Positions 11,701-62,430 of a stretch of 64,000 nt of DNA are shown here, one piece after another. A model generated the notes under the pieces. The model saw nothing but the letters and a program-made list of their open reading frames with translations. It was not told where the DNA came from and made no database searches. The translations under genes and the position numbers were made by a program. Where the stretch lies: positions 8,149 through 72,148 of the IMG/VR virus record IMGVR_UViG_3300021185_002720. One strand, 5' to 3'. Position 1 is the stretch's first letter, and each line of letters begins with the position of its first letter. Source of the DNA: a virus.

Positions 11701-11867
11701 ACAAAGAAGAATTATTCGATGAAATTGCAGAGCAATTTAACATCCTAGCTGAAAACAATAGCGGGACTACAAAAGCTTCTCAAGCAAGAGCTAGAAAAGC
11801 AGCAGGAGAGATTAAAAAGTTGATTACTCCTTACAAAAAAGCGAACATGGAGGCAACGAAGGCGTAG
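11697..11867 (+). CDS. histone H1-like (Hc1-type) small DNA-binding protein, 56 aa, missing from the ORF track
   Basis: MNKEELFDEIAEQF...GTTKASQARARKAAGEIKKLITPYKKANM. Confidence 0.7.
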   Translation: MNKEELFDEIAEQFNILAENNSGTTKASQARARKAAGEIKKLITPYKKANMEATKA

Positions 11868-11905
11868 GGGGGCGTTTCTCTCTAACCGACGAAGTCGCCA
11901 CGCGC
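11866..11905 (+). repeat. GC-rich hairpin element, copy 1 (GGGGGG-CGT-TTCTCTCT / CGAC-GAA-GTCG / CCACGCGC)
   Basis: Near-identical to 62297-62336. Confidence 0.75.
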
Positions 11906-11914
11906 GAATTTAAC

Positions 11915-11945
11915 AAACCCTGCCCTAACCGGTGGGGTTTTTTTT
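11915..11945 (+). terminator. rho-independent terminator
   Basis: aaaccctgcc-ctaacc-ggtggggttt stem-loop followed by a T run. Confidence 0.75.
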
Positions 11946-12061
11946 GTGAAATAGTTGGTAAAGTAAGAAAAAGACTGTATAGGGGAACCTTCCGGAAAAG
12001 CATAGTTGGATATTTATAATAAAAATCGTATATTGTAATATGGAATTTATTTACTTTAGTG

Positions 12062-12217
12062 ATGAGTGGAACGAAAAAAGAAAAGACGGCGATAAAACTA
12101 GAGCAGGTGGTACTCACCCACCAAGAATGGCTCCATGCTCTGCGCATGCCTACGCCAGTGAAGAACAAGAAGAAATATACCAGAAAAACAAAACACAGAA
12201 ATGATAGAGCACTTTAG
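12062..12217 (+). CDS. small basic protein with KNKKKYTRKTKH motif; an overlapping alternative ORF runs 12040-12204
   Basis: Manual translation, 51 aa, downstream of the promoter motif at 12006-12036. Confidence 0.45.
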   Translation: MSGTKKEKTAIKLEQVVLTHQEWLHALRMPTPVKNKKKYTRKTKHRNDRAL

Positions 12218-12503
12218 AAATTATATAGGCTATTATTTTATTGCAGCAGCAATTTTGCTTATAGTTGCAGGAGAATATTTTACAGGAGTCTTAATTGGGT
12301 TTGTAACCGTGTTAAAGGTACCGCCATTTGATTGGGTTGGAAGAGCAATGGACTGGTCAGCAGGAATTGGGCATAGATATGGATTGAAGCTTAAAGCCTG
12401 GAAAGAAAAGCAATCAAAACCAGTTAGGATACTGGTAACAATAATTGCTGCAATCCTGGTCTTTTTAATATGGTGGAATATGCCTGAATGTGAGTTATGT
12501 TAA
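12201..12503 (+). CDS. membrane protein
   Basis: Two hydrophobic segments. Confidence 0.6.
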   Translation: MIEHFRNYIGYYFIAAAILLIVAGEYFTGVLIGFVTVLKVPPFDWVGRAMDWSAGIGHRYGLKLKAWKEKQSKPVRILVTIIAAILVFLIWWNMPECELC

Positions 12504-12979
12504 AAGATTATATTAGAGAAGTGCCCGACTTTCCAAAAAAAGGGATTAACTATAAAGACATACAACCTTTACTTGCAGACGATAATGCATTCTTCGATGC
12601 TCTATACGACTTAGGAGAATTAGTTGATATTGAAAAAGTAGATTACTTTGTAGGGATCGAGTCGCGTGGGTTTATATTCGCGTCCGCGCTTGCCGCTATG
12701 AATATGAAAGGCTTTAAAATGATCCGTAAAGCAGGAAAATTACCTCCTGCTAATTTAGTATCTATAGAATATGGATTAGAGTACGGTAGAGATACCATAG
12801 AAATAGAAAAAGGTTTTGGAAATGTTGTAATTGTTGATGATGTATTCGCGACCGGAGGAACAATGACAGCAGCCGAAATGATCTGCGAACTTGCAGGGTA
12901 CCAAGTAGTAGATAGTATTTGCTTACTTGATATTGGAATCAACAAAAAACATACTACAAAATGCCTAATATCTTATTAG
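12497..12979 (+). CDS. apt: adenine phosphoribosyltransferase
   Basis: PDFPKKGI, GIESRGF, RKAGKLP, EYGLEYG, IVDDVFATGGT. Confidence 0.92.
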   Translation: MLKDYIREVPDFPKKGINYKDIQPLLADDNAFFDALYDLGELVDIEKVDYFVGIESRGFIFASALAAMNMKGFKMIRKAGKLPPANLVSIEYGLEYGRDTIEIEKGFGNVVIVDDVFATGGTMTAAEMICELAGYQVVDSICLLDIGINKKHTTKCLISY

Positions 12980-22952: not shown

Positions 22953-24689
22953 ATGAGATGGTTACTATTCATAGTAATTGCTGCGATGGGGATGTTCGAG
23001 GGTCATAGTCAGACCCTCGTTCAAACCTATACTGATAGATGTACCGGAGAGGTAAAAGTATTCTCTGTTCAAATGGGAGGCCAAACAGTGGTCGCTTATT
23101 ATAATAAATCGAGAGTATTTACTTCTACTGAATTTACTAACGGTACTTTACAAGCATGGCTAGAAGAAACTTATTCTTGGTTTCAAGCTTTATCACCATG
23201 CTCCTCTGGGAATGCTAATTCTCAAACAACTCAACAGACAACAAATCAAGCAACAACAAATGCTACAAATGCAGCTAATAACGCTACATCTGGAGCAACT
23301 CAAAATACCGGAACAACAAATACCGGAACAACAAATACTAACACAGGCAATGGAAGCACAGGAAATACAGGATCAAGTGGAGGAACAGGAGGTTCTTCTG
23401 GATCAGGCAATTCAGGAAGCAGCGGAAGCAGCTCCGGTAATAACGGAGGAGGATCAGGCTCTGGGGGCAGCGATGGCTCAGGAGGCAATTCAGGATCTTC
23501 TGACAACAGTGGCTCAGGAGGAAATGATTCCGGAAACGGTGGAGGAGGAGACTCTTCTGGCGGCAGCGATTCAGGAGGGAGTGACGATTCAGGTGGGTCT
23601 GATAGCTCGGGTGATAACGGTGGTTCGTCAGATTCAGATAACTCTTCTGGGGATGGAGATAGCAGCGATGATAATTCGTCAGGAGGAGAAGAAAGCGATT
23701 CAGGCGGTGAAGGAGAAGAAAATAAAGACGATTCGAAAAATGAGGAAAGTAAGGATGAAAAGTCTGATGAAAAGTCTGAAGAGAAATCTGAAGAAAAAGA
23801 AAAAGAAGAAGAAGTAGAAGAAGAAAAGAAAGAAGAAAAAGAAGAGGAAAAAGAAGAAGAAAAGAAAGAAGATAAAGAAGAAGAAGAGGAAGAGGAAAAA
23901 AAGGAAGATAGTAAAGAAGAGGAAGAGGAAGAAGAAGAGGAGGAGAAAGAAAAGACTTTAGCACCACCAATCGTAACTGCTAATTTAGTTACTATGCAAA
24001 TGATGGATGGTGTATTGCAACAAGCAGCTTCATTTGGATACTCACAATCTTCTTTAACCGGAAGAGAAACATACTCAGCTAATGCTATGGTATGGTCTAA
24101 CCTTAAGCAATTTAGTTTAAACCTTTCACAGAGTACTGTATACTTTAATTACGATAGAGAAGTTCCTGTAATGGTACTGGATCCTGAAACAGGAAAGAAG
24201 TATAAATTTGGTAGCTATATGGACAAAGGATCCATAATGATGGTACAATCAGTCTCAGCTGGCTATATGAAGATGTTTTCAACTCATGTTGTTACAGCAG
24301 GTATAAGTAATGTATATTTAGGTCAGAAAGAAAATGGTTGGAAAGGATTCGTAGGTGGATTTGCTTTAACTAGTATGGGAGTATTTTTAGAAGGCGGTGA
24401 AAAAATAGCTACTATGTCAATTACTGGATTTGCTACTAAACCATTTAACGTTAAAGATAGAGTAGTAATATCCCCTATGGTAGCCTATTCTCATTCTCCT
24501 ATGACTTATGCTGTAAAAGCTAAAACAGCAACTTGGACTGAATACGGTACATATATTTTAGGTAGTAACTTTGACTTTAAACTTTCTCAGAGGTTTAATG
24601 CAAATATAGGAGGAACAGTTATTGGAAATACTCAACCAGGTATACCAATGTCTTATGCTATAACCGTTGGATCACGATTTCAATTCTAA
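22953..24689 (+). CDS. exported protein with G/S/N- and E/K-rich linker and C-terminal beta-barrel-like domain
   Basis: Signal peptide, long low-complexity stalk, amphipathic strands ending in GSRFQF (terminal Phe). Confidence 0.6.
   Translation: MRWLLFIVIAAMGMFEGHSQTLVQTYTDRCTGEVKVFSVQMGGQTVVAYYNKSRVFTSTEFTNGTLQAWLEETYSWFQALSPCSSGNANSQTTQQTTNQATTNATNAANNATSGATQNTGTTNTGTTNTNTGNGSTGNTGSSGGTGGSSGSGNSGSSGSSSGNNGGGSGSGGSDGSGGNSGSSDNSGSGGNDSGNGGGGDSSGGSDSGGSDDSGGSDSSGDNGGSSDSDNSSGDGDSSDDNSSGGEESDSGGEGEENKDDSKNEESKDEKSDEKSEEKSEEKEKEEEVEEEKKEEKEEEKEEEKKEDKEEEEEEEKKEDSKEEEEEEEEEEKEKTLAPPIVTANLVTMQMMDGVLQQAASFGYSQSSLTGRETYSANAMVWSNLKQFSLNLSQSTVYFNYDREVPVMVLDPETGKKYKFGSYMDKGSIMMVQSVSAGYMKMFSTHVVTAGISNVYLGQKENGWKGFVGGFALTSMGVFLEGGEKIATMSITGFATKPFNVKDRVVISPMVAYSHSPMTYAVKAKTATWTEYGTYILGSNFDFKLSQRFNANIGGTVIGNTQPGIPMSYAITVGSRFQF
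23220..23955 (+). repeat. low-complexity coding tract (T/N-rich, then G/S/D-rich, then GAA-rich E/K)
   Basis: Directly visible in DNA and translation. Confidence 0.85.
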
Positions 24690-29265: not shown

Positions 29266-29270
29266 GGTTG

Positions 29271-30707
29271 ATGGAAGGTTATATTAAAAAAGAAGATAGG
29301 AAAAAGATACTCCTACTATGTGATGATATTCGAATGCATTCTGGAATAGCTACAATGGCTAGAGAGTTTGTAGTCAATAATGGTCATCGATACAATTGGT
29401 TTAACGTAGGTGCTGCAGTCAATCATGCAGATAAAGGTAAGGTATTAGATCTATCAGCCGATATTAATAAACAATTAAATATAGAAGATGCAGATGTAAG
29501 GATACTCCCTTACAATGGATACGGAGATGCTCAGTTAGTTAGAGACATTATGAAGAGAGAAAAGCCAGATGCTATTTTTATCTTTACTGATCCAAGATAT
29601 TGGACTTGGCTATTCGAAATTGAAAGAGAAGTAAGAAGTCAAGTTCCAATCATCTGGTTAAATATTTGGGATGAATTTCCTTCACCTAAATACAATGAAC
29701 ATTTTTACGATTCAGTAGATGCTTTGTTAAGTATCTCTAAACAAACTAAACTGATAAACGAATTAGTATTAGGGAATAAAGCTGATGATAAGGTATTAAA
29801 GTATATTCCTCATGGAATAGATAACGATATATTTAGACCTATAGAAGATCCTGAGAATAATAAAGAGTTCCAAGGATTTAAAAAAGGAGTATTTAACAAT
29901 AAAGATTATGAATTCGTCGCTTTCTTTAACTCTAGAAACATTCAACGTAAAAGACCAGCAGATGTTATGCTAGCTTTTAAGCTCTTCTGTGATAGTATAG
30001 GTAAAGAGAAAGCTAAGAAATGTGCTTTAGTAATGCATACTGCTCCTGTAGACCAACACGGAACTGATCTAAATGCAGTTAAGAATGCAATATGTGATCC
30101 TGAATATGTAAACGTATTTTTCTCTACTACTAAAATTAATCCTATTCAAATGAACGGGATGTATAATTTAGCAGATGTAACTATGTTGATATCGTCTAAC
30201 GAAGGATGGGGATTATCATTAACTGAGTCTATGTTAGCAGGTACAATGACAATCTCAAACGTAACAGGAGGAATGCAAGACCAAAGTAGATTTGTAGATG
30301 AAAACGGAGAATGGTTTACTCCATCAGCTGATATACCTTCTAACCATAGAGGTACATATAAAGAACATGGTGAATGGAACCTACCGGTATTCCCATCTAA
30401 TATTTCTTTAGCAGGTTCAGTACCTACTCCTTATATTTTTGACGATAGATGTTCACCAGAAGAAGTAGCTCAAGCGTTAGAGGTAATCTACGACATGAGT
30501 CCTGAGGAAAGAAATGAAAGAGGTTTAAAAGGAAGAGAATGGGCTATGTCTGAAGAAGCAGGACTTACAGCTAAAATAATGAGTGATAGAATAGCAGAAG
30601 CTATTGATGAAACTTTAGAGAGCTTTGTTCCAAGACCTAGATACGATCTTTTAAAAGTAGAAGATAAACCAAGTAAATTAATTGAACACAAATTAACAGG
30701 TTATTAA
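29271..30707 (+). CDS. GT4 glycosyltransferase
   Basis: SGIATMARE, IPHGID, RNIQRKR, NEGWGLSLTESM. Confidence 0.85.
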   Translation: MEGYIKKEDRKKILLLCDDIRMHSGIATMAREFVVNNGHRYNWFNVGAAVNHADKGKVLDLSADINKQLNIEDADVRILPYNGYGDAQLVRDIMKREKPDAIFIFTDPRYWTWLFEIEREVRSQVPIIWLNIWDEFPSPKYNEHFYDSVDALLSISKQTKLINELVLGNKADDKVLKYIPHGIDNDIFRPIEDPENNKEFQGFKKGVFNNKDYEFVAFFNSRNIQRKRPADVMLAFKLFCDSIGKEKAKKCALVMHTAPVDQHGTDLNAVKNAICDPEYVNVFFSTTKINPIQMNGMYNLADVTMLISSNEGWGLSLTESMLAGTMTISNVTGGMQDQSRFVDENGEWFTPSADIPSNHRGTYKEHGEWNLPVFPSNISLAGSVPTPYIFDDRCSPEEVAQALEVIYDMSPEERNERGLKGREWAMSEEAGLTAKIMSDRIAEAIDETLESFVPRPRYDLLKVEDKPSKLIEHKLTGY

Positions 30708-30708
30708 T

Positions 30709-31989
30709 ATGAGTAAATCAACATTAGTTATTAGCTGCCCTATTGATACTTATTCAGGATATGGAGCAAGATCAAGAGACCTAGTAAAAGCTATCATAGC
30801 AACAGGTAAATATAACGTAAACATAATTGGACAACGATGGGGTAATACTAGATTCGGTTACTTAGATGATCATAAAGAAACTGATCTCAAAAGCCTAATC
30901 ATACCTGGACTACAGACTCAACCTGATATATGGATACAAGTTACTGTACCTAACGAATTTCAAAAGGTAGGTAAATATAATATCGGTGTTACAGCTGGAA
31001 TAGAGACTGACCAATGTCACGGTAGTTGGATAGAGGGTTGTAATAGAATGGACCTTATACTAACCTCATCAGAGCACTCTAAAAAGGTATTCGTTAATAC
31101 TATAGTAGATGCTATGGATCAAAAGACCGGTCAGAAAATTAAAGAAATTAAACTAGAAAAACCAGTCGAAGTATTATTTGAAGGGGTAGATACAACTAAG
31201 TACTTTCAAACTAAAACATCAGCTAAGACAGAGTTTACTTTAGACATCAACACTATACCAGAATCATTTTGCTACCTTAGTGTAGGACATTGGATGCAAG
31301 GAGATTTTGGACACGATAGAAAGAATATAGGGTATACTGTTAAGACATTTTTAGAGACTTTTAAAACTAAGAAAAATCCTCCTGCTTTAATACTTAAATG
31401 TAGTACAGCTTCTACATCTATTTTAGATAGAGAAAGGATTTTAGATAAGATAGATGCTATTAGAAAGACCATTAAAGGTGGTAGGTTAGCTAATATCTAT
31501 TTGCTTCATGGAGAGATAACAGATGGAGAAATGAATGATCTATATAACCATCCTAAAGTTAAAGTAATGGTTAGTCATACTAAAGGAGAAGGATATGGAA
31601 GACCCCTTGCTGAGTTTGCTGTTACAGGAAAGCCTATCATTGCATCAGGATGGTCCGGTCATACAGACTTTTTAGATAAAGATCTTTCTATACTACTCGG
31701 TGGTACAATAGATAGAGTTCATCCATCGTCTGTTCTCAAAGATATGATCATTACAGAAGCTAGTTGGTTTACACCTAGTGATCCAGATACTTCTAAAGCA
31801 TATAAGAAAACATTTAAACATTACAAGGACTGTATACCTGGAGCTAGAAAACAGAGAAGAGTTATATTAGACAACTTTACATACGAAGATATGTGCAAGA
31901 GAGTTGATAACATATTAGAGAGTAATATTCCAGACTTTCCTAAGCAAATACAATTAACATTACCTAAATTAGATTTACCAAAATTATAA
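30709..31989 (+). CDS. GT4 glycosyltransferase
   Basis: SGYGARSR, DRKN, KGEGYGRPLAE, WSGHTDF. Confidence 0.85.
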   Translation: MSKSTLVISCPIDTYSGYGARSRDLVKAIIATGKYNVNIIGQRWGNTRFGYLDDHKETDLKSLIIPGLQTQPDIWIQVTVPNEFQKVGKYNIGVTAGIETDQCHGSWIEGCNRMDLILTSSEHSKKVFVNTIVDAMDQKTGQKIKEIKLEKPVEVLFEGVDTTKYFQTKTSAKTEFTLDINTIPESFCYLSVGHWMQGDFGHDRKNIGYTVKTFLETFKTKKNPPALILKCSTASTSILDRERILDKIDAIRKTIKGGRLANIYLLHGEITDGEMNDLYNHPKVKVMVSHTKGEGYGRPLAEFAVTGKPIIASGWSGHTDFLDKDLSILLGGTIDRVHPSSVLKDMIITEASWFTPSDPDTSKAYKKTFKHYKDCIPGARKQRRVILDNFTYEDMCKRVDNILESNIPDFPKQIQLTLPKLDLPKL

Positions 31990-31992
31990 GTT

Positions 31993-32463
31993 ATGATAGA
32001 TAAAGATTCATTAGTAGAGGGACCATTTGGAAGTGATGCATGTTATGAAACATCATTTGAACAAGAAGGAAAAACAATAACAACGTGGCTATGTTTCGGT
32101 AGTGGCTTTACTACTTCAACAATAATGACTGAAGGTTCATCAGCAGTAAGTAATTTACTAGAAACAGCTCCTTCGTTGTATAAAGATTTACTCCATACAG
32201 ATAAAGATAAAAAAGTATGGTTACCTGCTACGATTACTTTACCAGAAAAAGGTATGGTATTTTTAGACGGTACTAATACTGATAACTGGAACTGGACTGC
32301 TGTAAAAGCAGCAAGGTTAACAAAAGAAGATAAAGAGTCTGGTAAGTTTCCTGAAGGTAATGAATGGAAAATGGAGATGAAAAATAAGAAAGTATTTGGT
32401 CAAACCGATTTCATGGATGCTATGGATCATATTGGCTTCTTTGCTTTAGAACCTCAAGTATGA
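31993..32463 (+). CDS. hypothetical protein
   Basis: ORF within the glycosyltransferase operon. Confidence 0.65.
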   Translation: MIDKDSLVEGPFGSDACYETSFEQEGKTITTWLCFGSGFTTSTIMTEGSSAVSNLLETAPSLYKDLLHTDKDKKVWLPATITLPEKGMVFLDGTNTDNWNWTAVKAARLTKEDKESGKFPEGNEWKMEMKNKKVFGQTDFMDAMDHIGFFALEPQV

Positions 32464-33083
32464 AAATAAGCTATGCCATAACGGTTTGTAATGAATTCGA
32501 AGAGATTCAAAAACTTGTATCTACACTAATGTTAAATATTAGAGAAGAAGATGAAGTTATAATTCTATTCGATAAACGTAACGGCACAGCAGAGGTATGG
32601 GACTACCTAGTAGGTCTACAGAGCCAAAACCTAGTACTTACATTTCCTGAAACGTTTAAAGGGCACTTTGCTGATTGGAAAAATAAACTTACCTCTTTAT
32701 GTGGCGGGGATTATATCTTTCAGATAGATGCAGATGAAGTACCTAACGAAGCTTTGATAGCTAATCTTCCAGGCATATTAGAATCTAATCCTGATAATGA
32801 AGTTTACTTAGTTCCTAGAGTTAACACTGTTGATGGATTAACAGATGAACATATTAATAAATGGGGTTGGAATATAAATGATTCAGGTTGGGTTAACTGG
32901 CCTGATTATCAATGGAGAATCTATAAAAACTCAGATGATATAAGCTGGGTTAATAAGGTGCATGAAAGGCTTGAAGGGTTCAAGACGTATGCTCCATTGC
33001 CTCAAATAGAATCTATGGCACTTTACCACCCTAAAGACATAGAGAGGCAAGAAAAGCAAAACCAATATTACGAAACATTATGA
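32460..33083 (+). CDS. GT2 glycosyltransferase
   Basis: ISYAITVCNE, FQIDADE, PDYQWRIY, VHE. Confidence 0.85.
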   Translation: MKISYAITVCNEFEEIQKLVSTLMLNIREEDEVIILFDKRNGTAEVWDYLVGLQSQNLVLTFPETFKGHFADWKNKLTSLCGGDYIFQIDADEVPNEALIANLPGILESNPDNEVYLVPRVNTVDGLTDEHINKWGWNINDSGWVNWPDYQWRIYKNSDDISWVNKVHERLEGFKTYAPLPQIESMALYHPKDIERQEKQNQYYETL

Positions 33084-33262
33084 AAAAGAAACTAATATCA
33101 ATAGCTTTAGTTAGTACATTATTAATCGGCTGTGGCTCTTCAAAGGCATCAGCTAATACTACTACACAGACAGAAGTTATTAGTCAAGAAAATGATCCTC
33201 TGATGAAATTATTAATATCAGGATTAATTATATATACAGTTCAATTACTATTTGCAAGATAA
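33080..33262 (+). CDS. small lipoprotein-like protein
   Basis: Lipobox LIGC. Confidence 0.5.
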   Translation: MKKKLISIALVSTLLIGCGSSKASANTTTQTEVISQENDPLMKLLISGLIIYTVQLLFAR

Positions 33263-33263
33263 C

Positions 33264-33422
33264 ATGATTAAGATAGATGTCAAAGTAGGAGATACTATCA
33301 TGGTTGGTAGATTTAAAAATAAAAGAGTTAAGGTTAAGACTATAGAGTATGATGAATTTGGAATGCCGATGATAAATGGAAAGCCTGGCTGTAATTTTAG
33401 ATTGGTACCTAATCCAAGATAA
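33264..33422 (+). CDS. small hypothetical protein, 52 aa, missing from the ORF track
   Basis: MIKIDVKVGDTIMVGRFKNKRVKVKTI... Confidence 0.6.
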   Translation: MIKIDVKVGDTIMVGRFKNKRVKVKTIEYDEFGMPMINGKPGCNFRLVPNPR

Positions 33423-33436
33423 ACCTATTTATAAAT

Positions 33437-34024
33437 ATGGAATATAAAGACGCACTTAAATTAGCAGATGCAGTACCTGGATCTCTGATAGAATTAGGAT
33501 TTGGTAGAGGTAATAGTTTGAAAGAATTTATTTCCTATATGAATAATATTGAAATAAATAAAAGGAACATATGGATATATGAATCCTTTGACGGTTATAA
33601 TAACCCTACCCCTGAAGATAATAAAGCGTTTAAGAAAGGAGACTTTAAAAGACCTCCACAACCAGCTTATGATATTAGAAATACTATCAACACTAAAGTT
33701 GAGTTAGTTAAAGGCTACATAGAAGAGACATTACCAGCTAAGTATGATAAGTCTCCAGTTTCTATTGTGCACTCACATTTAATAAGCTATTCAAGTACTT
33801 TACATGGGTTAGAGAATTTCGAAAAATACATGCCTCCTGGTAGTGTAATTATAGTTACCGACTATCAAGCATTCGAAGGAACCAAACAAGCAGTAGATGA
33901 GTTTTTAATTAAGTTTGCTCCTAAATTTAAAACTATAGAAGTAAACGATACATTTATAGTTCTACAGACACAAAAGGTTCAAACATTAACTAATAAAGTA
34001 TTAAGAACTAGATCAGAATTTTAG
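33437..34024 (+). CDS. TylF/MycF-like O-methyltransferase
   Basis: PGSLIELGFGRG, YESFDG, LVKGYIEETLP, GTKQAVDEF; several canonical Asp residues are substituted. Confidence 0.7.
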   Translation: MEYKDALKLADAVPGSLIELGFGRGNSLKEFISYMNNIEINKRNIWIYESFDGYNNPTPEDNKAFKKGDFKRPPQPAYDIRNTINTKVELVKGYIEETLPAKYDKSPVSIVHSHLISYSSTLHGLENFEKYMPPGSVIIVTDYQAFEGTKQAVDEFLIKFAPKFKTIEVNDTFIVLQTQKVQTLTNKVLRTRSEF

Positions 34025-34027
34025 TTA

Positions 34028-34498
34028 ATGCATAGTATTCCAGAGCATTTAGAATATCATCTTAAAACTATTCTTTATCATACGGAAGATGCTTACATAG
34101 GAGGAAGTATAGAAGATTATTTCCTTTTAGGTTTCTCTGATAAGGTAATTAACGATGTAGATGTATTTACATATGACCATAAAGACCTTGAGAGACTTAT
34201 GGATTATTATGGAGAACCATTAGAAGTAGTTAAGAATAAAAAGAGAGCAGCTTTGATAGGAGATGTTTCTCATTTATATAAGTATAAAGATGTAGACATA
34301 CATTATATTGAGAGTTCAACATACCCTCATGAATTTATGACTACCAGATATAAAGATATGGTAATCACTCATCATACCTTAAAAAGTAAAAAAGGTATAG
34401 CAAAAATAGAAAGTGATTGGTTCCTGAAAAATGGAATAGAACTAGAGAAAGGAAAATCAATAGAAAGGATTTTAAAAACACAAAATAAGTTGCTTTAA
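34028..34498 (+). CDS. nucleotidyltransferase-like protein
   Basis: YIGGS...NDVDVF. Confidence 0.5.
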   Translation: MHSIPEHLEYHLKTILYHTEDAYIGGSIEDYFLLGFSDKVINDVDVFTYDHKDLERLMDYYGEPLEVVKNKKRAALIGDVSHLYKYKDVDIHYIESSTYPHEFMTTRYKDMVITHHTLKSKKGIAKIESDWFLKNGIELEKGKSIERILKTQNKLL

Positions 34499-34523
34499 CA
34501 AGTTATTTTTCTTATATTTAATT

Positions 34524-39338: not shown

Positions 39339-39339
39339 A

Positions 39340-39921
39340 ATGAAGACTTTAATTATCAACGCTTGTAGAACAGGTTCAACTACTCTGTATAACAATTTGC
39401 TAAAGGAAAGAAATTGCAAAGGGTATTTTAACCCATGGGCTACAGGTAAGGAAGATGATATACTTTGGTCTTTAGAGTCATTTGTTTTAAAGTGTGGAGT
39501 AATGTATAATCCTATTAGGCTTACTGAAGGTGGAAGTAAGGTTTACTTTCTACAGCAACAAGTTAATTGGTTTAAAGAATTAGCTGAAAAGTTTGATGAA
39601 GTAATATTACTCTCAAGAAAAAATACTACAGCTCATATTGAAAGCTTTATGCATTTGATTACTCACAGCACTCCAGACCAATATGAAGCAGCAGTAAAAG
39701 GAGATCCTTTAGCTCATACCTCTACGAGTCAATGGGTATATAATAAAGATGACTATGATAAAGATACTATAAGTAGAGCTCATGTAGATATATCAGATCA
39801 AAATAAAGTATTAAGAATGTTATCTAAGCAATTAGATATTCCTCTTAGTTACTATGAAGATTACTTTGACCCTAATGGTCCAAATAGATATAGGAAAATA
39901 AAAGGTAAGACCTTAATATAA
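39340..39921 (+). CDS. sulfotransferase-like protein
   Basis: NACRTGSTTL, LLSRKN...ES, YYED. Confidence 0.6.
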   Translation: MKTLIINACRTGSTTLYNNLLKERNCKGYFNPWATGKEDDILWSLESFVLKCGVMYNPIRLTEGGSKVYFLQQQVNWFKELAEKFDEVILLSRKNTTAHIESFMHLITHSTPDQYEAAVKGDPLAHTSTSQWVYNKDDYDKDTISRAHVDISDQNKVLRMLSKQLDIPLSYYEDYFDPNGPNRYRKIKGKTLI

Positions 39922-40145
39922 TGGTAAGTAGAAAAAGACATATACTTAAAACAGTTAGTTGGAGAATAATAGGAACAGTTGATACAATTGTTCTCTCTGG
40001 TTTTATAACAGGTTCGTGGAAATTTGGACTTGCTATAGGAGGAGTAGAAGTTATAACAAAAATGGTTCTTTATTATTTTCATGAAAGAGCCTGGTATAAA
40101 TTTAGTCGTTATGGAGTTAAAGGAAAAAATAAGTCAAGTAACTGA
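39921..40145 (+). CDS. DUF2061 family membrane protein
   Basis: RHILKTVSWRIIGTVDT, YYFHERAW. Confidence 0.85.
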   Translation: MVSRKRHILKTVSWRIIGTVDTIVLSGFITGSWKFGLAIGGVEVITKMVLYYFHERAWYKFSRYGVKGKNKSSN

Positions 40146-40902
40146 TAGTTACGAAAGAATTAAACTGTTAAAAGATGCTTGTAAAGGTGAAACAATTTAC
40201 CTAGTTACTTGTGGACCTTCTTTAACTACTCACAATAGAGAAAAACTTTTAGAAAAGCTAGACGGTAAGATAGTATTAGCAGCAAAGCAAGCTTACGAAT
40301 ATGTAAAAGAAGTAGCTACATTTCATTTGATGTCTGCATATTCATACCAACCTTACGAATACTATTCAGAAGATACAATCGTTCATTGGCAGCTAACAGC
40401 TATGAATATACCTGGTGAGTTAGAGAGAATAAATAATGAATGGAAACATAAAATGGATATTGCTATTCCTTGTTACTCTACTCCTTGGGTTGATATGAAT
40501 AATACAACAGCGTTTAGCAGAAGAATAGATCAGTTTGAAAAGTATAGCGAAGGACAGATTATTTGGGGTCCTGGTATAATGTATGAGTCTGGATTTCCTT
40601 TGGCTATGCATCTTGGTGCTAAAGAAATTGTTACTATAGGATGGGACATAGGAGATATATCTAAGTTTGAAAAGAAACATGGATACAAATTAGGGGATGA
40701 TAACTGGATAAAAGAACATGCAGATTCTTTATACAAAACTCATGCTGGATCTGGTCCTGATTATACTGAGTTGAGAGAAACTATAGACTGTACGAAAGAA
40801 ATGTATGATTATTTCTTGGATAAGAACATAAAAGTTCGTATCTTATCTAATAGTAACCCAGCTGATAAACGCTTTGAACGTATAACTTTAGATGAATTAT
40901 AA
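40111..40902 (+). CDS. Maf/DUF115-like glycosyltransferase
   Basis: YLVTCGPSL, LAMHLGAKEIVTIGWD. Confidence 0.55.
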   Translation: MELKEKISQVTDSYERIKLLKDACKGETIYLVTCGPSLTTHNREKLLEKLDGKIVLAAKQAYEYVKEVATFHLMSAYSYQPYEYYSEDTIVHWQLTAMNIPGELERINNEWKHKMDIAIPCYSTPWVDMNNTTAFSRRIDQFEKYSEGQIIWGPGIMYESGFPLAMHLGAKEIVTIGWDIGDISKFEKKHGYKLGDDNWIKEHADSLYKTHAGSGPDYTELRETIDCTKEMYDYFLDKNIKVRILSNSNPADKRFERITLDEL

Positions 40903-41707
40903 ACTAGCATTATATTGTAAAACATACCCAGGCGATTTTGATAGAGTCGCAGTGCTTATAGAGAGTATCAATAAACACAATGTAGATAATATACCTCTAT
41001 TTATTTCCTGTGAAGGTAAATTTAAAGATTTATTAGAAGCTAAGATAGGTACTGAAGCATATACCTTTATTGCTGATGAAGATTTATATATTCCTTCTAG
41101 ACAGATGGCAGGATGGGAACATCAAATGCTTGTTAAACTTAATGCATTCGAAGGTATAGCAACTGATAACCTATTAATATTAGATTCAGATGCATACTTT
41201 ATTAGAGACTTTTATGAAGCTGATTTTATAGCTTACGATAGTATCCCTTATACTATCATTCACGAAAACGTACAAGTATCAGAATATGAAGCTCTTTTAA
41301 AAGGAGGAGATTATTCTAAGACTGGATACGCAAAAGCTGTTCAAGCCTATAGGAGTATTTTTGGAGGTAAGTCAAATAGAGTTTATGACTATGGACCTAA
41401 TCCTCATTTATGGAATAGAAAAGTAATAGAAGACTTTAAAGTAAACTACTTACAACATAATAATTTATCTTTAGATGATTTTTGCTTTGGTATTAAACAG
41501 CAATTTGGTATACATTTTAGAGAGACTCTTACTTATGGAGAATATTTACTTGCTACTAAGGTAATAGATATAGTCCCTTGTGGTCCTTTATTTAAAGTTT
41601 ACCATTGGAAAGAGTTATATGATTTTGAATCTAAATTAGATTGGGTTAAAGAAGAAGAAATAAAGAAAACTTACTTAGGAATAATTAAACAAAGTAACTG
41701 GTCATGA
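40892..41707 (+). CDS. GT-A-like protein (DUF6492-like)
   Basis: KTYPGDFDR, GWEHQMLVKL, ILDSDAYFIR. Confidence 0.6.
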   Translation: MNYKLALYCKTYPGDFDRVAVLIESINKHNVDNIPLFISCEGKFKDLLEAKIGTEAYTFIADEDLYIPSRQMAGWEHQMLVKLNAFEGIATDNLLILDSDAYFIRDFYEADFIAYDSIPYTIIHENVQVSEYEALLKGGDYSKTGYAKAVQAYRSIFGGKSNRVYDYGPNPHLWNRKVIEDFKVNYLQHNNLSLDDFCFGIKQQFGIHFRETLTYGEYLLATKVIDIVPCGPLFKVYHWKELYDFESKLDWVKEEEIKKTYLGIIKQSNWS

Positions 41708-42582
41708 TAGTATATCAAGTACACCATATGTGGTATGAGTCTAACATGATTGATGAGTGTTGGCATTCACTACTAAATGCATTAAGAGCAGCACCAGACG
41801 TTGAAGTAAAGATAAAGATATGTTTTAACTTCCAAACTTATATAGAAGAACCTGAGGTAGAAGAGTTTGAATATATGCTTAAGAAGCATACTACACATCC
41901 TTTGTTTAGAGATTATAAACCTGAAGTTACAATTAAGACTAATGATGATCCATTTTACAATATAGCGGATTGGAGAAGAGAAGTATACGATACTAATGCT
42001 AAGTATACAGTATGGGGAGAAACAGATACAATATTACCTAGAGATATATTTGCAATACTAAACTCAGTTAATATAGATCAACCTCATGCTTTAACATTTG
42101 CTGGAAGACCAATGTGGGATGATAGTTGGGATGTAGTTACTCATGAAAAGTTAAGAGGGTATAGTAAACCTTGCCAATGTAATCCTCATAAAGATGATTG
42201 TATAGAATTATTAGAATCACCATGGAAGTATAAAGACTATATAACTCAAGAGGAGCTAGATAAATTTAACGATGAATCTGGTGATATAAAAATACAACAA
42301 GTACCTCACAAGTTAGACGGTAGCACTGTATGTCTATCAGGAGGAATAGAAACACCTTTTATAGCTCCTGGAATGCATTTTGTTAGAGAAGATACTTGTT
42401 TAGAGTATTTTTTAAGAGCTAAAGGTATCCCTCAAGTATGTATCACGACAAGACTTAAGGGGCATAATTACAAACACCCTCATAAAAGAGTTGGAACAAA
42501 TGCTACTAGAAACGATGAGGTATTTAAAAAGTACGCTGATGAATCAATAAAAGCGATGAATAAATTTTTAAGTGAACTATGA
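41704..42582 (+). CDS. putative glycosyltransferase
   Basis: WGETD and REDT motifs; position in the GT cluster. Confidence 0.5.
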   Translation: MIVYQVHHMWYESNMIDECWHSLLNALRAAPDVEVKIKICFNFQTYIEEPEVEEFEYMLKKHTTHPLFRDYKPEVTIKTNDDPFYNIADWRREVYDTNAKYTVWGETDTILPRDIFAILNSVNIDQPHALTFAGRPMWDDSWDVVTHEKLRGYSKPCQCNPHKDDCIELLESPWKYKDYITQEELDKFNDESGDIKIQQVPHKLDGSTVCLSGGIETPFIAPGMHFVREDTCLEYFLRAKGIPQVCITTRLKGHNYKHPHKRVGTNATRNDEVFKKYADESIKAMNKFLSEL

Positions 42583-43412
42583 TAACATTTTGTATAAGTA
42601 CATATAATAATCTACCATACCTTAAACTAGCAGTACAGTCTGTTAGAGCTCATTCATATTGGAAAGATGCTCCATTTATTATTCATGCTGAAAACTGTAC
42701 TGACGGTACTAATGAATGGTTAAGAGCTATGGCCGATCAATACAATTTAACTTACTATGTAGATGAGAATGATAATCCTAAAGGTATAGGAGGAGGAATG
42801 AACTTCTGTGCTGAGAAAGTTAAGACAGAATACATAATGTTTCTTCATTCAGACTTCTATGTTACTCCTAATTGGGATTTAGAGCTGATGAAAGTTCATG
42901 AAAAGTATGATGATGAAAAGCTATGGGTTAATTCATTTAGGATTGAACCTAATATGTTTAACGACTCAGATAGACCGGGTACTCATTTCGTACCTAAAGA
43001 AGCATTTGGAGCTTACCATGATGAGTTTAAAGATAAAGAATTAATAGAGTATGCTAGACAAATTGCAGAAGCTAATGACTTTGAAATCGCTAAAGGAGAA
43101 GGTGTTTCCGGACTTGTTAGAAAGTCTTGGTGGGATCATATTGGTGGCAACGATCCTTTATTTGCTCCTACTTCATGGGATGACTATGATTTGTTCCTCA
43201 GGATGTTAAACGAAGGAGGTAGGTTCTTAATGCCTACTAAATCTATAGTATGGCACTTTGGTGCTAGAGGTTCTCATAGGTTAGAAGAAAATAATAATAA
43301 ATCATCTGATAGGCAGCAAAAAGCTGAAGCAGCAAATGCTCAAAAGTTCTACAACAAATGGGGTGGAATGCCTAAAAAAGATATAAACGGAATGATATGC
43401 GGCATACAGTAA
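42579..43412 (+). CDS. GT2 glycosyltransferase
   Basis: ISTYNN, TDGT.EWL, FLHSD, GGNDPLF, DDYDLFLR. Confidence 0.85.
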   Translation: MITFCISTYNNLPYLKLAVQSVRAHSYWKDAPFIIHAENCTDGTNEWLRAMADQYNLTYYVDENDNPKGIGGGMNFCAEKVKTEYIMFLHSDFYVTPNWDLELMKVHEKYDDEKLWVNSFRIEPNMFNDSDRPGTHFVPKEAFGAYHDEFKDKELIEYARQIAEANDFEIAKGEGVSGLVRKSWWDHIGGNDPLFAPTSWDDYDLFLRMLNEGGRFLMPTKSIVWHFGARGSHRLEENNNKSSDRQQKAEAANAQKFYNKWGGMPKKDINGMICGIQ

Positions 43413-44530
43413 TTATACCTTCATATAATACATTACCTCATCTTAAAAATACTTACGAAAGTATCAAGCTTTGGGGTAAAGACGCAACTATAATTATTAT
43501 AGATGATGCATCAGAGGATGGTACTGCTGAATGGTTAGGTACCTTAAGAGATAAAATGCTTAAGATTATCATTAGCAAAGAGAGAAAAGGACATACATAT
43601 TGGTACGATGAAGGAATGAGGTTAGCTGAAACAGATATAGTTTCTATACTTCATTCAGATATGATTATAGGTCCAAATTACTTTGAGAACTTATTCAAAC
43701 ATTTAGAGAGAGGTAAAGTAGTATGTGCTACTAGAATAGAACCTCCTATTCATCCTGCTGGTAGAGAAAAGATAGTAAGAAACTTTGGTGATGAAGCTCA
43801 TAACTTTATGTGGGATGCTTTTAAGAAGTTTGTTATTCAGGAAAAAGCTGATAGTGTTAATGATACTACAAGAGGTATATTTGCTCCTTGGATGCTATAT
43901 AAAGAAGATCATTTATCAATAGGAGGACATGATCAAAGGTTCGCCCCATTTGGATACGAAGACTCAGACATTTTTAATAGATGGATTAATAATGGATATG
44001 AAATGATTCAATCTAGAGACTCATTAGTCTATCATATGACTTGTAGAGGACATAAATGGAACGCAGGAGTAGGAATAGAGAATCATGACTATAGAGAGAT
44101 AATGACTCGTTGTGAAAGAGAGTACCAACGTAAGTGGGGTGATTGGATACAAAATGATAATTACCAATACCCTATCATTTATCCAAAATATGATAAAGGA
44201 ATTATAATAAAGAATTGTAAACCAGAACTGATAGGACAGTTGGAACCTTGGGCGGATAATTTATATGTTGATATAGATTATAAATCTTATATAGAAACAG
44301 AGCAAACACGCACAGTCACAGACTTATACGATAGAATAAAGCCTTTCGATAATGAGAAACAAAACCATATATTAATCGAAGTAGACGGTAATACATTTAC
44401 GCAGCAGGATTATATTTATATTAGACAGTTAAGTGCTATTCTAAAACAAAATCAACCTAAGCCTGGAAGTGTTACATTAGGAAACCTTAACATTAACATT
44501 ATTAATTATGAAGAAAAAATACTTAGTTGA
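43397..44530 (+). CDS. GT2 glycosyltransferase
   Basis: IIPSYN, IDDASEDGT, LHSDM, GGHD.RF...EDSD. Confidence 0.85.
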   Translation: MRHTVIIPSYNTLPHLKNTYESIKLWGKDATIIIIDDASEDGTAEWLGTLRDKMLKIIISKERKGHTYWYDEGMRLAETDIVSILHSDMIIGPNYFENLFKHLERGKVVCATRIEPPIHPAGREKIVRNFGDEAHNFMWDAFKKFVIQEKADSVNDTTRGIFAPWMLYKEDHLSIGGHDQRFAPFGYEDSDIFNRWINNGYEMIQSRDSLVYHMTCRGHKWNAGVGIENHDYREIMTRCEREYQRKWGDWIQNDNYQYPIIYPKYDKGIIIKNCKPELIGQLEPWADNLYVDIDYKSYIETEQTRTVTDLYDRIKPFDNEKQNHILIEVDGNTFTQQDYIYIRQLSAILKQNQPKPGSVTLGNLNINIINYEEKILS

Positions 44531-55961: not shown

Positions 55962-56035
55962 GGATCAGTAGCTCAGCTGGATAGAGCATTAGCCTTCTAA
56001 GCTAACGGTCGTAGGTTCGAATCCTACCTGATTCA
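55962..56035 (+). tRNA. tRNA-Arg (anticodon UCU), CCA not encoded
   Basis: Acceptor ggatcag/ctgattc, D-arm gctc..gagc, anticodon arm ttagc-cTTCTaa-gctaa, T-loop ggttcgaatcc. Confidence 0.95.
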
Positions 56036-56044
56036 CAAAGAAAA

Positions 56045-57784: not shown

Positions 57785-57785
57785 T

Positions 57786-58048: not shown

Positions 58049-58108
58049 TAGTTGCCTAGGAACTTAATTATTCATATATTTAGGTATAAAGGTTAAAGGT
58101 TATAAATT
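58049..58108 (+). promoter_or_regulatory. class I promoter
   Basis: TTG 58052, TATATTTA 58075. Confidence 0.75.
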
Positions 58109-59265: not shown

Positions 59266-59314
59266 GAACTTATTTATTCGTATATTTAAGTATAATTAAA
59301 AACAAATAAAGGTT
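59255..59314 (+). promoter_or_regulatory. class I promoter
   Basis: TTG 59258, TATATTTA 59281. Confidence 0.75.
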
Positions 59315-59818: not shown

Positions 59819-59819
59819 T

Positions 59820-60053: not shown

Positions 60054-60214
60054 TGAACAATCACTGGTATAACGAAGGTAAGGAGATTATCAATCAAGGA
60101 CGGACTAGACGCCAAACAGAAGGTAACTATAAAGTAATGGGTATAGTACTTGTTGCTTTAGTAGTAGGAATTATAATTACACTTGTATGTGGCGTCTTTG
60201 GGCAAGGGCTTTAG
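60053..60214 (+). CDS. small membrane protein, 53 aa, missing from the ORF track
   Basis: MNNHWYNEG...QGRTRRQ followed by a TM segment. Confidence 0.5.
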   Translation: MNNHWYNEGKEIINQGRTRRQTEGNYKVMGIVLVALVVGIIITLVCGVFGQGL

Positions 60215-60345
60215 GAGAGAAGATAGGTGCTACCAAGAAGGAAGCAGATGCAGTAGCTAGGTTTAGAACCATTATAGTTGCTCAAGCAGTAATAACGAAT
60301 ATATTAATCGCAGTAAATATTATAATCAATTGGTTAAAGAATTAA
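60187..60345 (+). CDS. small membrane protein, 52 aa, missing from the ORF track
   Basis: MWRLWARALGEK...EADAVARFRT..., a pattern recalled from aquatic phages. Confidence 0.6.
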   Translation: MWRLWARALGEKIGATKKEADAVARFRTIIVAQAVITNILIAVNIIINWLKN

Positions 60346-61253
60346 ATAAATTTATATACGAGAGTAAGATAAACGTTCCAGTTGATCCTACCTTTGAACT
60401 AAGACCTGGAGTCTATGGATGGTGTGGTTCAGATGATCCTGAAACGTTTGAGAAGAATATTACATCAGATGTAAGAAGAAAGTATCTTGAAGAGTATATA
60501 GATAAACCAATAGAGTATAAACTTAATAAGCAGATGCTAAGATGTGATCTCGATATAGAAGAGATTAGAGATAAACCTGTTGACCTATACTTAGGATGTT
60601 CACATACATTCGGTACTGGACATTATAAAGAGAATACCTGGCCTTACCAAATGTCTAAGTATACCGGTAATATAGAAGTTAATCTAGGAAGACCTGGAGG
60701 TGATATAGAAGCTTCATATATGAGATTACTTCAGTACGTTAGGAGATTAAATGTAGCTAACGTATTTCATCTACAACCTCCTTATTATAGGTATGGCTAT
60801 AGGACGCATAATACTCATTCTACCTGGATGGTATGGAATGCTGAGAAAGAGATGAAAGACTTCTATGGTCAAGATTACGTTTGGAATAACTACCTCACAG
60901 ATGGTGCTAGAGAGTATAACTATATGAAATACCTAAACCTTATCAGGTATGAATGTAACAAACTAAACATTCCTTATTACCATTCTAACATTCGTAATAT
61001 AGAAGAAGCAGATACTGATTATATTCTAAAAGAGTATAAAAAGCTATGGACTGAAGAAGAGACTATGGAGGAAGCATTAGACTTTACTAAGTACGGAGAT
61101 GTACCTGCAAGAGATCTAATGCATTACCCAGTGAGTATAATGAAGAGAGCAAGTAGAATGTTCATAGATCTTTACGATGAGTATGAAGAAGGTCATGTTA
61201 ACGAAGCATTCGATACTGAGAAAGCATTAACCTATAACAATACATTAATATGA
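60330..61253 (+). CDS. SGNH-like protein
   Basis: LGCSHTFG, WP, NLGRPGG, ARDLMHY. Confidence 0.6.
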   Translation: MVKELNKFIYESKINVPVDPTFELRPGVYGWCGSDDPETFEKNITSDVRRKYLEEYIDKPIEYKLNKQMLRCDLDIEEIRDKPVDLYLGCSHTFGTGHYKENTWPYQMSKYTGNIEVNLGRPGGDIEASYMRLLQYVRRLNVANVFHLQPPYYRYGYRTHNTHSTWMVWNAEKEMKDFYGQDYVWNNYLTDGAREYNYMKYLNLIRYECNKLNIPYYHSNIRNIEEADTDYILKEYKKLWTEEETMEEALDFTKYGDVPARDLMHYPVSIMKRASRMFIDLYDEYEEGHVNEAFDTEKALTYNNTLI

Positions 61254-61801
61254 GTTCATTAGCATTTTATCCTATGCTCACTCCTAGAGAGGTAATAGAA
61301 GCAGGAGCGTTTGGAGGTTGTTACTTCGGTCTACCGATAGAAGAGTATACTAACTTCGAGTATCAAGAGTTATTCGATTATCATTTCGATGGCTTAGACA
61401 TGAGCTTATACTTAGGAGAAACGTATAAACCTCGTATGAATAAGTTTAAGATTAGATCTGGAATGGACTATGAGTACTGGAAGCGTATGAAATGGATGCA
61501 TGAAAGAGATCCATATGGTTGGTTTGAATGGTACTGTAAGTACAGTATGGGCTATAGAGGAGAGGATGATGATAGACAGATAAGACGTTGGCAGGACTTC
61601 TGTGGTGATAAAGGTAGATGGCGTAATAGAATCTATACTAGAATAGAAGAGACTGATGACTGGGAAGTAAGCCCGCGCATTCAACAATCATTACTCCATT
61701 GGGGTTATAGAGTTAATAAAGAAGATTACGAACAGTATAAAGCATATAAACATTATAGAAATGAACCAGAATATAATTCCTATAGCAGTAGTATATACTA
61801 A
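61250..61801 (+). CDS. conserved hypothetical protein
   Basis: LTPREV..GAFGG.YF, DPYGWFEWYC, DDRQI.RW, SPRIQQSLLHWG. Confidence 0.7.
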   Translation: MSSLAFYPMLTPREVIEAGAFGGCYFGLPIEEYTNFEYQELFDYHFDGLDMSLYLGETYKPRMNKFKIRSGMDYEYWKRMKWMHERDPYGWFEWYCKYSMGYRGEDDDRQIRRWQDFCGDKGRWRNRIYTRIEETDDWEVSPRIQQSLLHWGYRVNKEDYEQYKAYKHYRNEPEYNSYSSSIY

Positions 61802-61964
61802 AGGAGCAGGTATAAAGAAGTACCTAAAGGTATTTAACAACATAAGGCTTGTAGATAAGATAATAGCTCCTAGAAGCAAAGTACTTCCAGACAATGCTGT
61901 TATAGTAGATATAGGACAGGGTAGTGACTTTGAAGAGAAGTATAAGAAGAAGCATAAGTTATGA
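61761..61964 (+). CDS. hypothetical protein
   Basis: Coupled ORF. Confidence 0.5.
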   Translation: MNQNIIPIAVVYTKGAGIKKYLKVFNNIRLVDKIIAPRSKVLPDNAVIVDIGQGSDFEEKYKKKHKL

Positions 61965-62149
61965 TCAATAGCGGAAGAGAATGGGATTGGATGGATGAGC
62001 CTAAGGAGTTAGACTATAGTAAGGCATGGGAGGTATTCCAGAAGGACTATGGAGGACTATCATATGAGGACTTTAAAGCAAATGTATTCGCATATGATGA
62101 ATTAAAAGAAGAGTATGTGTTTAAAGATTTAATCAAGTTAATCAAATAA
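61961..62149 (+). CDS. hypothetical protein
   Basis: MINSGREWDWMD N-terminus. Confidence 0.5.
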   Translation: MINSGREWDWMDEPKELDYSKAWEVFQKDYGGLSYEDFKANVFAYDELKEEYVFKDLIKLIK

Positions 62150-62160
62150 ATAAATAAGTT

Positions 62161-62430
62161 ATGTGTACAAGTGGAATAATGTATGAGTTCGAAGATGAAC
62201 AAATAGAAGATTGTAGAATACAAAAAGACATTGAAGCGTCTATGGTAGAGGATTTAGAGGGATGGGGCTTTGATATGGAACGCTTGAGGGAGAGTGAGGG
62301 GGGTCGTCTCTCTCTCGACCGAAGGTCGCCACGCGCATTTTCGACGAATGTCTCAAATGATACCACCATCCAAACTACCAACCGTTGTAGTTATTCCGGT
62401 CTTAGGAGTACCTCTTCATATATGGAGTAA
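62161..62430 (+). CDS. hypothetical protein containing the in-frame hairpin element
   Basis: ORF ending CSYSGLRS..SY; the element at 62297-62336 is read in frame. Confidence 0.45.
   Translation: MCTSGIMYEFEDEQIEDCRIQKDIEASMVEDLEGWGFDMERLRESEGGRLSLDRRSPRAFSTNVSNDTTIQTTNRCSYSGLRSTSSYME
62297..62336 (+). repeat. GC-rich hairpin element, copy 2 (CGACC-GAA-GGTCG / CCACGCGC)
   Basis: Near-identical to 11866-11905. Confidence 0.75.

Follow-up and report, generated by a model that had tools for sequence, protein, structure and literature searches.

We describe a short nucleic acid element, about 45-60 nucleotides (nt) long, that occurs twice in a 64,000-nt stretch of viral DNA (IMG/VR record IMGVR_UViG_3300021185_002720, positions 8,149 to 72,148; "the window" below), which makes up most of a 72-kb virus record with a completeness rating of 44%. 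Judged by comparison of related sequences, the element is a structured, conserved and strand-specific signal of large marine Flavobacterium phages, kept under strong selection; its anatomy, conservation, strandedness, copy number and genomic contexts are reported below as observed. Tentatively, and with well under even confidence, we read it as a co-transcriptional signal for elongation or antitermination. Almost nothing is known about the timing of gene expression and the start of replication in large marine Flavobacteriia phages, and because a near-invariant signal is present in immuto, a phage available in culture (host Flavobacterium sp. LMO8), the question becomes testable.

Two copies in the window

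Both copies lie on the + strand. Copy 1 begins with a purine-rich tract (11852..11872) that ends in a G-run (11867-11872) and continues with the CU tract TTTCTCTCT (11875..11883), possibly the 3' strand of a first hairpin (P1); these are followed by a mini-hairpin (P2) of the sequence CGAC-GAA-GTCG (11887..11897) and by C-CACGCGC with the tail GAATT (11898..11910, with CACGCGC at 11899-11905; the tail consensus is R-W-W-T-T). In copy 2 the purine tract GAGGGAGAGTGAGGGGGG (62286..62303, G-run 62298-62303) leads into the pyrimidine (CU) tract TCGTCTCTCTCTC (62304..62316), then into a P2 of the form CGACC-GAA-GGTCG (62316..62328), which supplies codons for D-R-R-S, and finally into C-CACGCGC and the tail ATTTT (62329..62341, with CACGCGC at 62330-62336), which supplies codons for P-R-A-F. 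An original prediction, made from the letters of the window, had placed both copies here with these sequences, and our analysis confirms it; the additional C-G pair in the P2 of copy 2, which it took to leave the structure intact, is real and proved to be one of at least ten covarying stem variants.

Chance is excluded as an explanation for the pair. With at most one mismatch, the shared 12-mer GTCGCCACGCGC matches twice against 0.01 matches expected (none of 100 shuffles reached two), and the G-run/CU-run pattern AGGGGGGN{3,7}TCTCTCT matches twice against 0 expected. A covariance model, of the kind that the original prediction had proposed, scored the copies at 68.0 and 49.4 bits and the next best site at 7.4 bits when run with filters off over both strands of the 64 kb; the model is home-built, and its E-values are rough. 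The word CACGCGC occurs twice in the window, counting both strands, and the whole 72-kb record holds the same two copies of the element and no others, both forward. Judging by other assemblies, an assembly artefact is likewise excluded, because the same two sites recur in them.

Anatomy and folding

Comparison of 45-71 distinct sequences divides the element into five parts: a purine tract with a terminal G-run, a CU tract, a mini-hairpin of the C-GNA-G type that may be missing (P2), the word CACGCGC and an RWWUU tail. The purine tract ends in G3-7; in 57 of 71 distinct instances purines make up 80% or more of its final 20 nt, a level that 4.2% of the 20-mers of the window reach. After the G-run a short CG(U/C)UU spacer leads into the CU tract, and the next 16 nt average 84% pyrimidine. 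P2 is 9-13 nt long, with stems of 3-5 base pairs (bp); it is separated by 1-2 bases from CACGCGC, which is invariant but for CACGCGA in one relative. The R-W-W-U-U tail carries U at positions 4 and 5 in 44/45 and 43/45 sequences, and downstream of it come an A-C..AAC stretch and then a C-rich stretch. The element itself lacks the U-run of an intrinsic terminator; where a terminator is present, it is separate.

In the aligned sequences, covariation proves P2 to be a hairpin: pairing is 100%, and at two of the pairs both partners have changed, in 10 and 8 sequences. The stems seen are CGAC/GTCG, CGACC/GGTCG, CAC/GTG, CACC/GGTG, GCACC/GGTGC and CTCC/GGAG, and further CGCC/GGCG, AACC/GGTT, CCAC/GTGG, GCAC/GTGC and CCCC/GGGG. 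The closing pair is C:G in all 42 aligned sequences with letters there and the loop is G-N-A in 44/44 (GAA in 41, GCA in 3), so the rule for stable GNA-triloop mini-hairpins, to which the original prediction had appealed, is borne out. No G-T wobble was found among 81 perfect P2 stems, counted in two overlapping listings. The description of the element as a pair of hairpins stood up only in part: the second hairpin covaries, whereas the first, P1, in which the purine tract would pair with the CU tract, shows one-sided changes and needs G-U pairs. As RNA, P1 is plausible from its sequence. The + strand folds better than the - strand in 38/45 instances, which is expected if G-U pairs matter and is therefore consistent with a reading in RNA.

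Two further structures were rejected. A pseudoknot between the loop GCG(Y) and the GCGC of CACGCGC, proposed by eye, is broken in L008/L313, L356, L007, L312, L402 and L389b, and a tRNA-like CCA end is not kept, since at that place different copies have CCA, UCA or ACA.

Distribution

Conservation in relatives, on which the original prediction depended, was found both in uncultured phage contigs and in immuto. An exact-pattern scan of viral contigs gave 19 loci, and a looser pattern gave 74 loci with 43 distinct cores, of which 2 are chance matches; in the loose collection scans, the matches listed were mostly chance, with one new variant (L215) and re-matches of L124 and L157. The gene that precedes copy 1, which encodes 56 amino acids (aa), has 157 relatives in viral contigs, and in the loci of the best 80 of these 157 the element lies within 200 nt 3' of the gene's stop codon in 37; in 5 a gene is inserted between the two and the element is found 950-1141 nt downstream, and 38 loci lack it. 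Among relatives of the gene at 62770, which lies downstream of copy 2, it is present in 4/4 loci with enough upstream DNA. From this synteny the window copies represent two orthologous sites: class A, which follows the 56-aa gene, and class B, in the neighbourhood of the small gene at 62161.

In immuto a full copy (70 bits; 42,440-42,496 of the immuto record) stands directly after the homolog of the 56-aa gene, near-unchanged although the neighbouring proteins are only about 55% identical; a second copy (64,751-64,796) is degenerate (18 bits) and has no hairpin. Near-complete relatives carry one or two strong copies, and records of 156-191 kb hold 1-3 copies each, in two syntenic places. Nine genomes have two copies in the same orientation with 32-50 kb between them; there is a single copy in G002 and a single full copy in immuto. 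Orientation is uniform as well: 42/42 elements in the 80 loci oriented by the 56-aa gene are on the + strand, and of two minus-strand pattern matches in those loci, the one inspected is not an element.

A blastn search of the 51-nt element against 50,697 GenBank phage records returned no match, which is a false negative (due either to the low-complexity filter or to short words) because immuto does carry the element. In bacteria, searched as one genome per prokaryote species, none of 48 pattern matches had both G-run and hairpin, and all were chance matches of high GC content; the covariance model run against 151 genomes of one Bacteroidota class gave weak matches only, of at most 23 bits, with the look of chance matches in coding regions. 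A decoy resembling a clustered regularly interspaced short palindromic repeat (CRISPR) was rejected on the same ground, there being no full element in the bacterial genomes searched. The element is thus phage-specific within the reach of our searches. Comparison with Rfam, also proposed in the original prediction, gave no match at the element: Rfam 15 at gathering thresholds matched a single tRNA in the whole window (tRNA-Arg, anticodon TCT, 55962-56036, in the early region), and nine loci (23,973 bases) searched at E<=5 gave three weak matches, none of them at the element. We found no literature linking Flavobacterium phages with antitermination, and among the papers listed for immuto no title concerned regulatory motifs.

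Genomic contexts and the class A site

Sixty-nine distinct instances have enough flanking sequence to be placed: 28 stand 0-30 nt ahead of an intrinsic terminator, 17 are part of an open frame, 12 precede a start codon by 13-31 nt, and the remaining 12 fall elsewhere between genes. The terminator-linked and start-codon-linked instances are therefore at joints between transcription units. One terminator-linked copy, after tail genes in L007, occupies an independent place.

At the class A site, copy 1 was found, as predicted, between a stop codon and a terminator. Its G-run overlaps the TAG stop (11865-11867) of the open reading frame (ORF) at 11697..11867 on the + strand, and an intrinsic terminator with a 10-pair stem and a T-run follows directly (11915..11945, + strand). 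The ORF is the Lys/Ala-rich 56-aa gene, which has no match in Pfam or PHROG and which we label, presumptively, "H1-like"; read-through of its stop codon was rejected, since in copy 1 a TAA follows five codons on. After the terminator comes a promoter-like site of the recurrent AGTTG..TATATT motif family (12007..12034, + strand). The copy stands at the end of a run of genes that includes groES, groEL and the 56-aa gene, ahead of a block of about 30 kb on one strand that is rich in sugar and polysaccharide genes.

Beyond this promoter-like site, a 52-aa, very basic ORF (12059-12217; ..THQEW..AL.IPTPVKNKKKY.RK.KHKN..) is conserved in L003 and L021 and overlaps a second ORF in another frame (12040-12204). 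Four relatives (L343, L345, L346 and L355) have, just after the stop codon of the 56-aa homolog where the element would normally stand, another GC-rich sequence (GAGTTTGAACGACCTCGAGCCCGATC...), about 100 nt long and itself conserved, which is possibly a further structured RNA. Of these four, L345 and L355 carry the element some 1.1 kb farther on; none was found in L343 or L346.

The class B site

That copy 2 is translated in frame, inside a small gene of 89 aa (62161..62430, + strand) beside a non-coding gap, was also confirmed. By the conservation of its product the frame is a real gene: the protein has 135 homologs, the element-coded SPRA motif is present in 118 of the best 120 of the 135, the best conserved part is LRESEG..SLDRRSPRAFSTNVSND, and the frame runs on into a second conserved block past the element. 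Across relatives the hairpin codons read DRRS, PPKV, STKS or SPKV while the base pairing is kept; the constraint is therefore on the nucleic acid, overlaid on the coding sequence. In region B the element may precede a 183-aa gene, precede the small gene or lie within it, or be intergenic, and L389 and L392 have a tandem pair 100 nt apart, with the extra copy upstream of the small gene. Placement in region B is thus regional and not bound to one gene. Copy B comes where the promoter-dense early region ends, a few kb before structural genes; in a complete relative the baseplate genes start about 8-9 kb beyond the class B site.

The gap that follows the small gene (62431..62769, + strand; 339 nt, its extent also put at about 430) is a non-coding region conserved in an alignment of seven relatives, and downstream of it lies a 100-aa gene whose product begins MTYTDKV (62770-63072). 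It contains AT-rich repeat blocks (TATATATTCATATAAAGATATA..CATATAAA..TATAT), the palindrome CTATTAATAATAG, the blocks AACATCAGG and TTCTCTATATAG, and a copy of the promoter-like motif (62715-62752). Neither a terminator nor an Rfam match was found in it, and RNAalifold gave -0.74 kcal/mol for the gap with no real covariation, so that a long-range RNA fold was rejected. The region could be an origin or a regulatory region.

Weighing the readings

In the reading that we tentatively favour, the transcription machinery would read the strand-specific element in passing. The element would be a site of pausing and factor loading that alters RNA polymerase downstream, for example toward read-through of terminators, and it could be read in the nascent RNA (as purine tract, CU tract, hairpin and single-stranded CACGCGC-RWWUU), in the displaced non-template DNA strand by way of the C-GNA-G mini-hairpin, or in both. 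We rank an elongation signal first because the element is strand-specific, stands before terminators and gene starts and is present once or twice per genome, and because ops, nut, put and LoaP-type signals offer a precedent; from this we infer reading by RNA polymerase or by a factor, with antitermination as the suggested outcome. The shifting place of the element within region B suits a signal that acts on whatever passes through, and its extreme conservation against neighbours of about 55% identity points to a partner that is itself conserved, for instance RNA polymerase or some conserved factor.

Several observations weigh against an elongation signal. The association with terminators mostly reflects one orthologous site and hence few independent events, and the class A terminator has a promoter-like site behind it, so that read-through is not obviously needed there. 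Ribosomes would unfold an RNA structure in the 17/69 instances that lie in a translated frame. P2 is missing from otherwise intact copies (L324, L337, L432, L465, L446 and the second copy of immuto). P1 (GGGGGG with TCTCTCT) is 96% paired, needs G-U or G-T pairs and varies among G-U, G-C and A-U by one-sided changes only; such changes are expected of any purine tract opposite a pyrimidine tract, so P1 is not proven. A NusG-like gene (PF02357) was found in 0/5 phage records (the control matched 11/14 genomes), and a factor would therefore have to come from the host or be of an unknown kind. Six metatranscriptome runs contain the 8-13 kb stretch as contigs; those aligned, from four of the runs, are short and shallow, and no listed piece bridges 11797-12027. 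Such contigs cannot show transcript ends. Finally, the features of the element fit a replication origin of the R-loop type about as well.

At such an origin a stable RNA:DNA hybrid would form at the purine- and G-rich tract, the C-GNA-G hairpin would keep the displaced strand open, and the RNA, whose end might come from the nearby terminator or from trimming by RNase H, would prime DNA synthesis into the AT-rich DNA beyond. We consider this doubtful, if a serious contender. It would account for the purine tract (at least 80% purine in 57/71 instances against 4% in the background, ending in G5-6), for a P2 that obeys the DNA mini-hairpin rule in both closing pair (42/42) and loop (44/44) and has no G-T wobble in the 81 perfect stems of the overlapping listings, for the position of copy B, some 230 nt upstream of conserved AT-rich repeat blocks lacking an RNA fold, and for one or two strand-specific, regionally placed copies per genome; it would also work inside a coding region. 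Yet the GC skew of a complete relative has no origin-like switch at either copy, the adjacent CU tract could fold back on the purine tract and compete with the hybrid, and several copies directly precede a start codon rather than AT-rich repeats. Known R-loop primers (ColE1 RNA II, mitochondrial conserved sequence block II and the retroviral polypurine tract) share with the element a G-rich purine tract in a transcript, followed by termination or processing, as well as strand specificity and one or few sites per genome; they have no counterpart of the CU tract or of CACGCGC. A site of RNA processing or stability is rather unlikely in our view: an endoribonuclease would cut in the RWWUU tail, GC-rich structures would protect the upstream 3' end, and the downstream message would gain a short leader. 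The conserved R-N-W-U-U tail (U in 44/45 and 43/45 at positions 4 and 5), which we take to resemble the RNase E preference RN|WUU, and the copies at gene joints (12/69 before a start codon, 28/69 before a terminator) would agree with this, as would the few sense-oriented sites per genome, which the RNase III sites of phage T7 also show; but the invariant CACGCGC and the DNA-type loop rule would be left unexplained, the cut would destroy the class B message in 17/69 instances, and a protective hairpin just ahead of a terminator hairpin would be redundant.

Less probable still is a site in double-stranded or nicked DNA, used by a phage nickase, by a recombinase or in terminase-type synapsis of two like sites, for which the nick sites of T5 and the pac synapsis of T4 genes 16/19 are parallels. 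Two direct copies at fixed relative places, 32-50 kb apart, a function independent of translation and an invariant CACGCGC that resembles a protein recognition word speak for it, whereas the pairing-preserving covariation argues for a folded single strand and not a protein operator, and G002 has one copy and immuto one full copy. An attenuator or riboswitch-like switch, in which the CU tract and the C-rich 5' arm of the terminator would be alternative partners of the G-run and a ligand or protein would decide between them, seems quite improbable. It would draw on the C-rich stretch after the tail in both classes, on the fixed spacing between element and terminator, and on a match, seen by eye, between the purine tract and the terminator 5' arm in some relatives (e.g., L341); against it, 41/69 instances have no terminator, the alternative pairing has no support from covariation, the downstream genes differ among relatives, and no Rfam aptamer matches. 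The original prediction had also considered a tiny mobile palindromic element or a target of the repetitive extragenic palindrome (REP)/HUH type, and this reading is not supported. A selfish mini-element or functionless leftover, resembling a REP or a miniature inverted-repeat transposable element (MITE), might explain the several contexts, including one inside a gene and the tandem pair 100 nt apart in L389 and L392, but it is very improbable: there are 1-3 syntenic copies per genome, purifying selection is strong (the SPRA motif is missing in only 2 of the best 120 class B proteins), and the bacterial genomes searched yielded no full copy. A target of REP, MITE or IS200-IS605 type was rejected for the same reasons, as the copies are not many and dispersed (2 in the window, 1-3 per record) and a Y1/HUH transposase (PF01797) was found in 0/5 records (the control matched 7/14 genomes).

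Likeness to known systems

The closest parallels to an elongation signal are found in bacteria and their phages. The ops site has 12 nt (GGCGGTAGnnTG) with a TG pause, and no GGCGGTAG-like word was seen by eye in the element alignment. Non-template DNA hairpins of a size similar to P2 (9-13 nt here) are known to act as recruiters, as with ops and RfaH (PMC5995543). The ops site resembles the element as a short, strand-specific signal that is read in elongation, with few sites per genome, ahead of long one-strand blocks; it differs in having a one-pair stem with a flipped-out T, whereas the element extends over some 45-60 nt, has a stem of 3-5 bp and includes CACGCGC as well as purine and CU tracts.

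The nut sites of phage lambda (boxA-boxB) and the put sites of HK022 are RNA hairpin signals, two per phage genome, that make RNA polymerase resistant to terminators, and nutR lies between the stop codon of a small gene and a terminator. The element resembles them in its two copies per phage genome and in this placement, and its copy number can be likened to that of nutL/nutR, putL/putR or ops sites. The boxA consensus is GCUCUUUAACAA-like and the boxB loop is a 5-nt, GNRA-like one. Unlike lambda nut, the element has no conserved boxA (copy 1 alone contains UUUAACAA, and the copies differ at tail positions 6-12), its loop is a GNA triloop and not a pentaloop, the hairpin is dispensable and some copies are translated. 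The LoaP leader hairpin and the bipartite conAn system are likewise small elements upstream of intrinsic terminators, where they direct processive antitermination of long accessory operons; they sit in promoter-proximal leaders with partners encoded nearby, whereas no partner is known for our element.

Early promoter hairpins of the N4 virion RNA polymerase have a 3-nt loop with a 5' G and a 3' A, closed by C:G (PMC4496689). They share with P2 the rule for loop and closing pair and the handful of copies per phage genome; the N4 hairpin, however, lies on the template strand, upstream of the genes that it drives, with a stem of 5-7 bp, whereas in every oriented locus the purine loop of P2 belongs to the coding strand and the stems have 3-5 bp. 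On strand and stem length an N4-type promoter is therefore unlikely; a single-subunit RNA polymerase (PF00940) was found in 0/5 records in a search whose control also matched nowhere.

DNA modification and significance

In the DNA of immuto, deoxyguanosine (dG) is fully replaced by 7-(formylamino)methyl-7-deazaguanine, and the route to fdPreQ1 in place of all dG runs through FolE-QueF, DpdA3 and a formyltransferase, DpdN (PMC10516641). The DNA of the window phage is probably modified too, because a GTP cyclohydrolase gene and a formyltransferase-like gene are present, and it may carry the same modification. These two genes, a formyltransferase-like gene and a GTP cyclohydrolase (FolE), lie at 1331-1867 and 2709-3665. 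If dG is modified, any DNA reader of the element must accept the modified G. A DNA G-quadruplex at the G-run was rejected, being excluded by full replacement of dG with a 7-deazaguanine derivative.

A broader proposal, which we put forward as speculative and hold to be unlikely, is that the element represents a new kind of transcription-coupled signal, a purine tract joined to a non-template C-GNA-G DNA mini-hairpin in phages in which every G is probably a 7-deazaguanine derivative. It would either form an R-loop whose polypurine RNA primes replication or recruit an elongation factor through folded non-template DNA, with the same 45-nt word serving in a 3' untranslated region and in coding sequence. 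Were the hairpin read as non-template DNA, the ops principle would extend beyond NusG paralogs and into fully guanine-modified DNA; were the element an origin mark, it would be the first origin signal for this phage group. It is also useful as an annotation mark, telling the chaperonin gene run apart from the block that follows and showing where the early region ends.

Genome setting and other observations

Nearly all genes of the window are on the + strand. They include a family A DNA polymerase, Hsp20, GroES, GroEL, NAD synthetase and GTP cyclohydrolase, and the window is also rich in glycosyltransferase and sialic-acid-type genes. The relative G003 (191,416 bp, rated 100% complete) has all 212 of its 212 ORFs of at least 80 aa, together with both copies of the element, on one strand; its GC skew has a dip at 50-75 kb that begins directly after the class B copy.

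A promoter-like motif, AGTTGC-N~17-TTCTTATATTTAGGTATAA, recurs in at least 12 copies in the window, mostly ahead of small genes at 45-63 kb (copies at 4499-4536, 34484, 45651, 48169, 50048, 54800, 56041, 57087, 58046, 59252, 62715 and others). Its spacers form subclasses, CCTCCCTGCGT and CTAGGAACTT, with TTCCGGAA in relatives. We take the motif to resemble the Bacteroidetes promoter type with -33 TTG and -7 TAnnTTTG, and it probably marks the early region.

The one-strand sugar and polysaccharide block at 29268-44530 encodes glycosyltransferases, NeuB, a pyruvyl transferase, cytidylyltransferases, an APS-kinase-like gene and a GtrB-like gene, an unusual cargo for a phage. Inside the ORF at 22953-24689, a GAA/AAG-rich tandem stretch of low complexity with periods of 9-15 nt (23692-23958) codes for a Glu/Lys-rich region.

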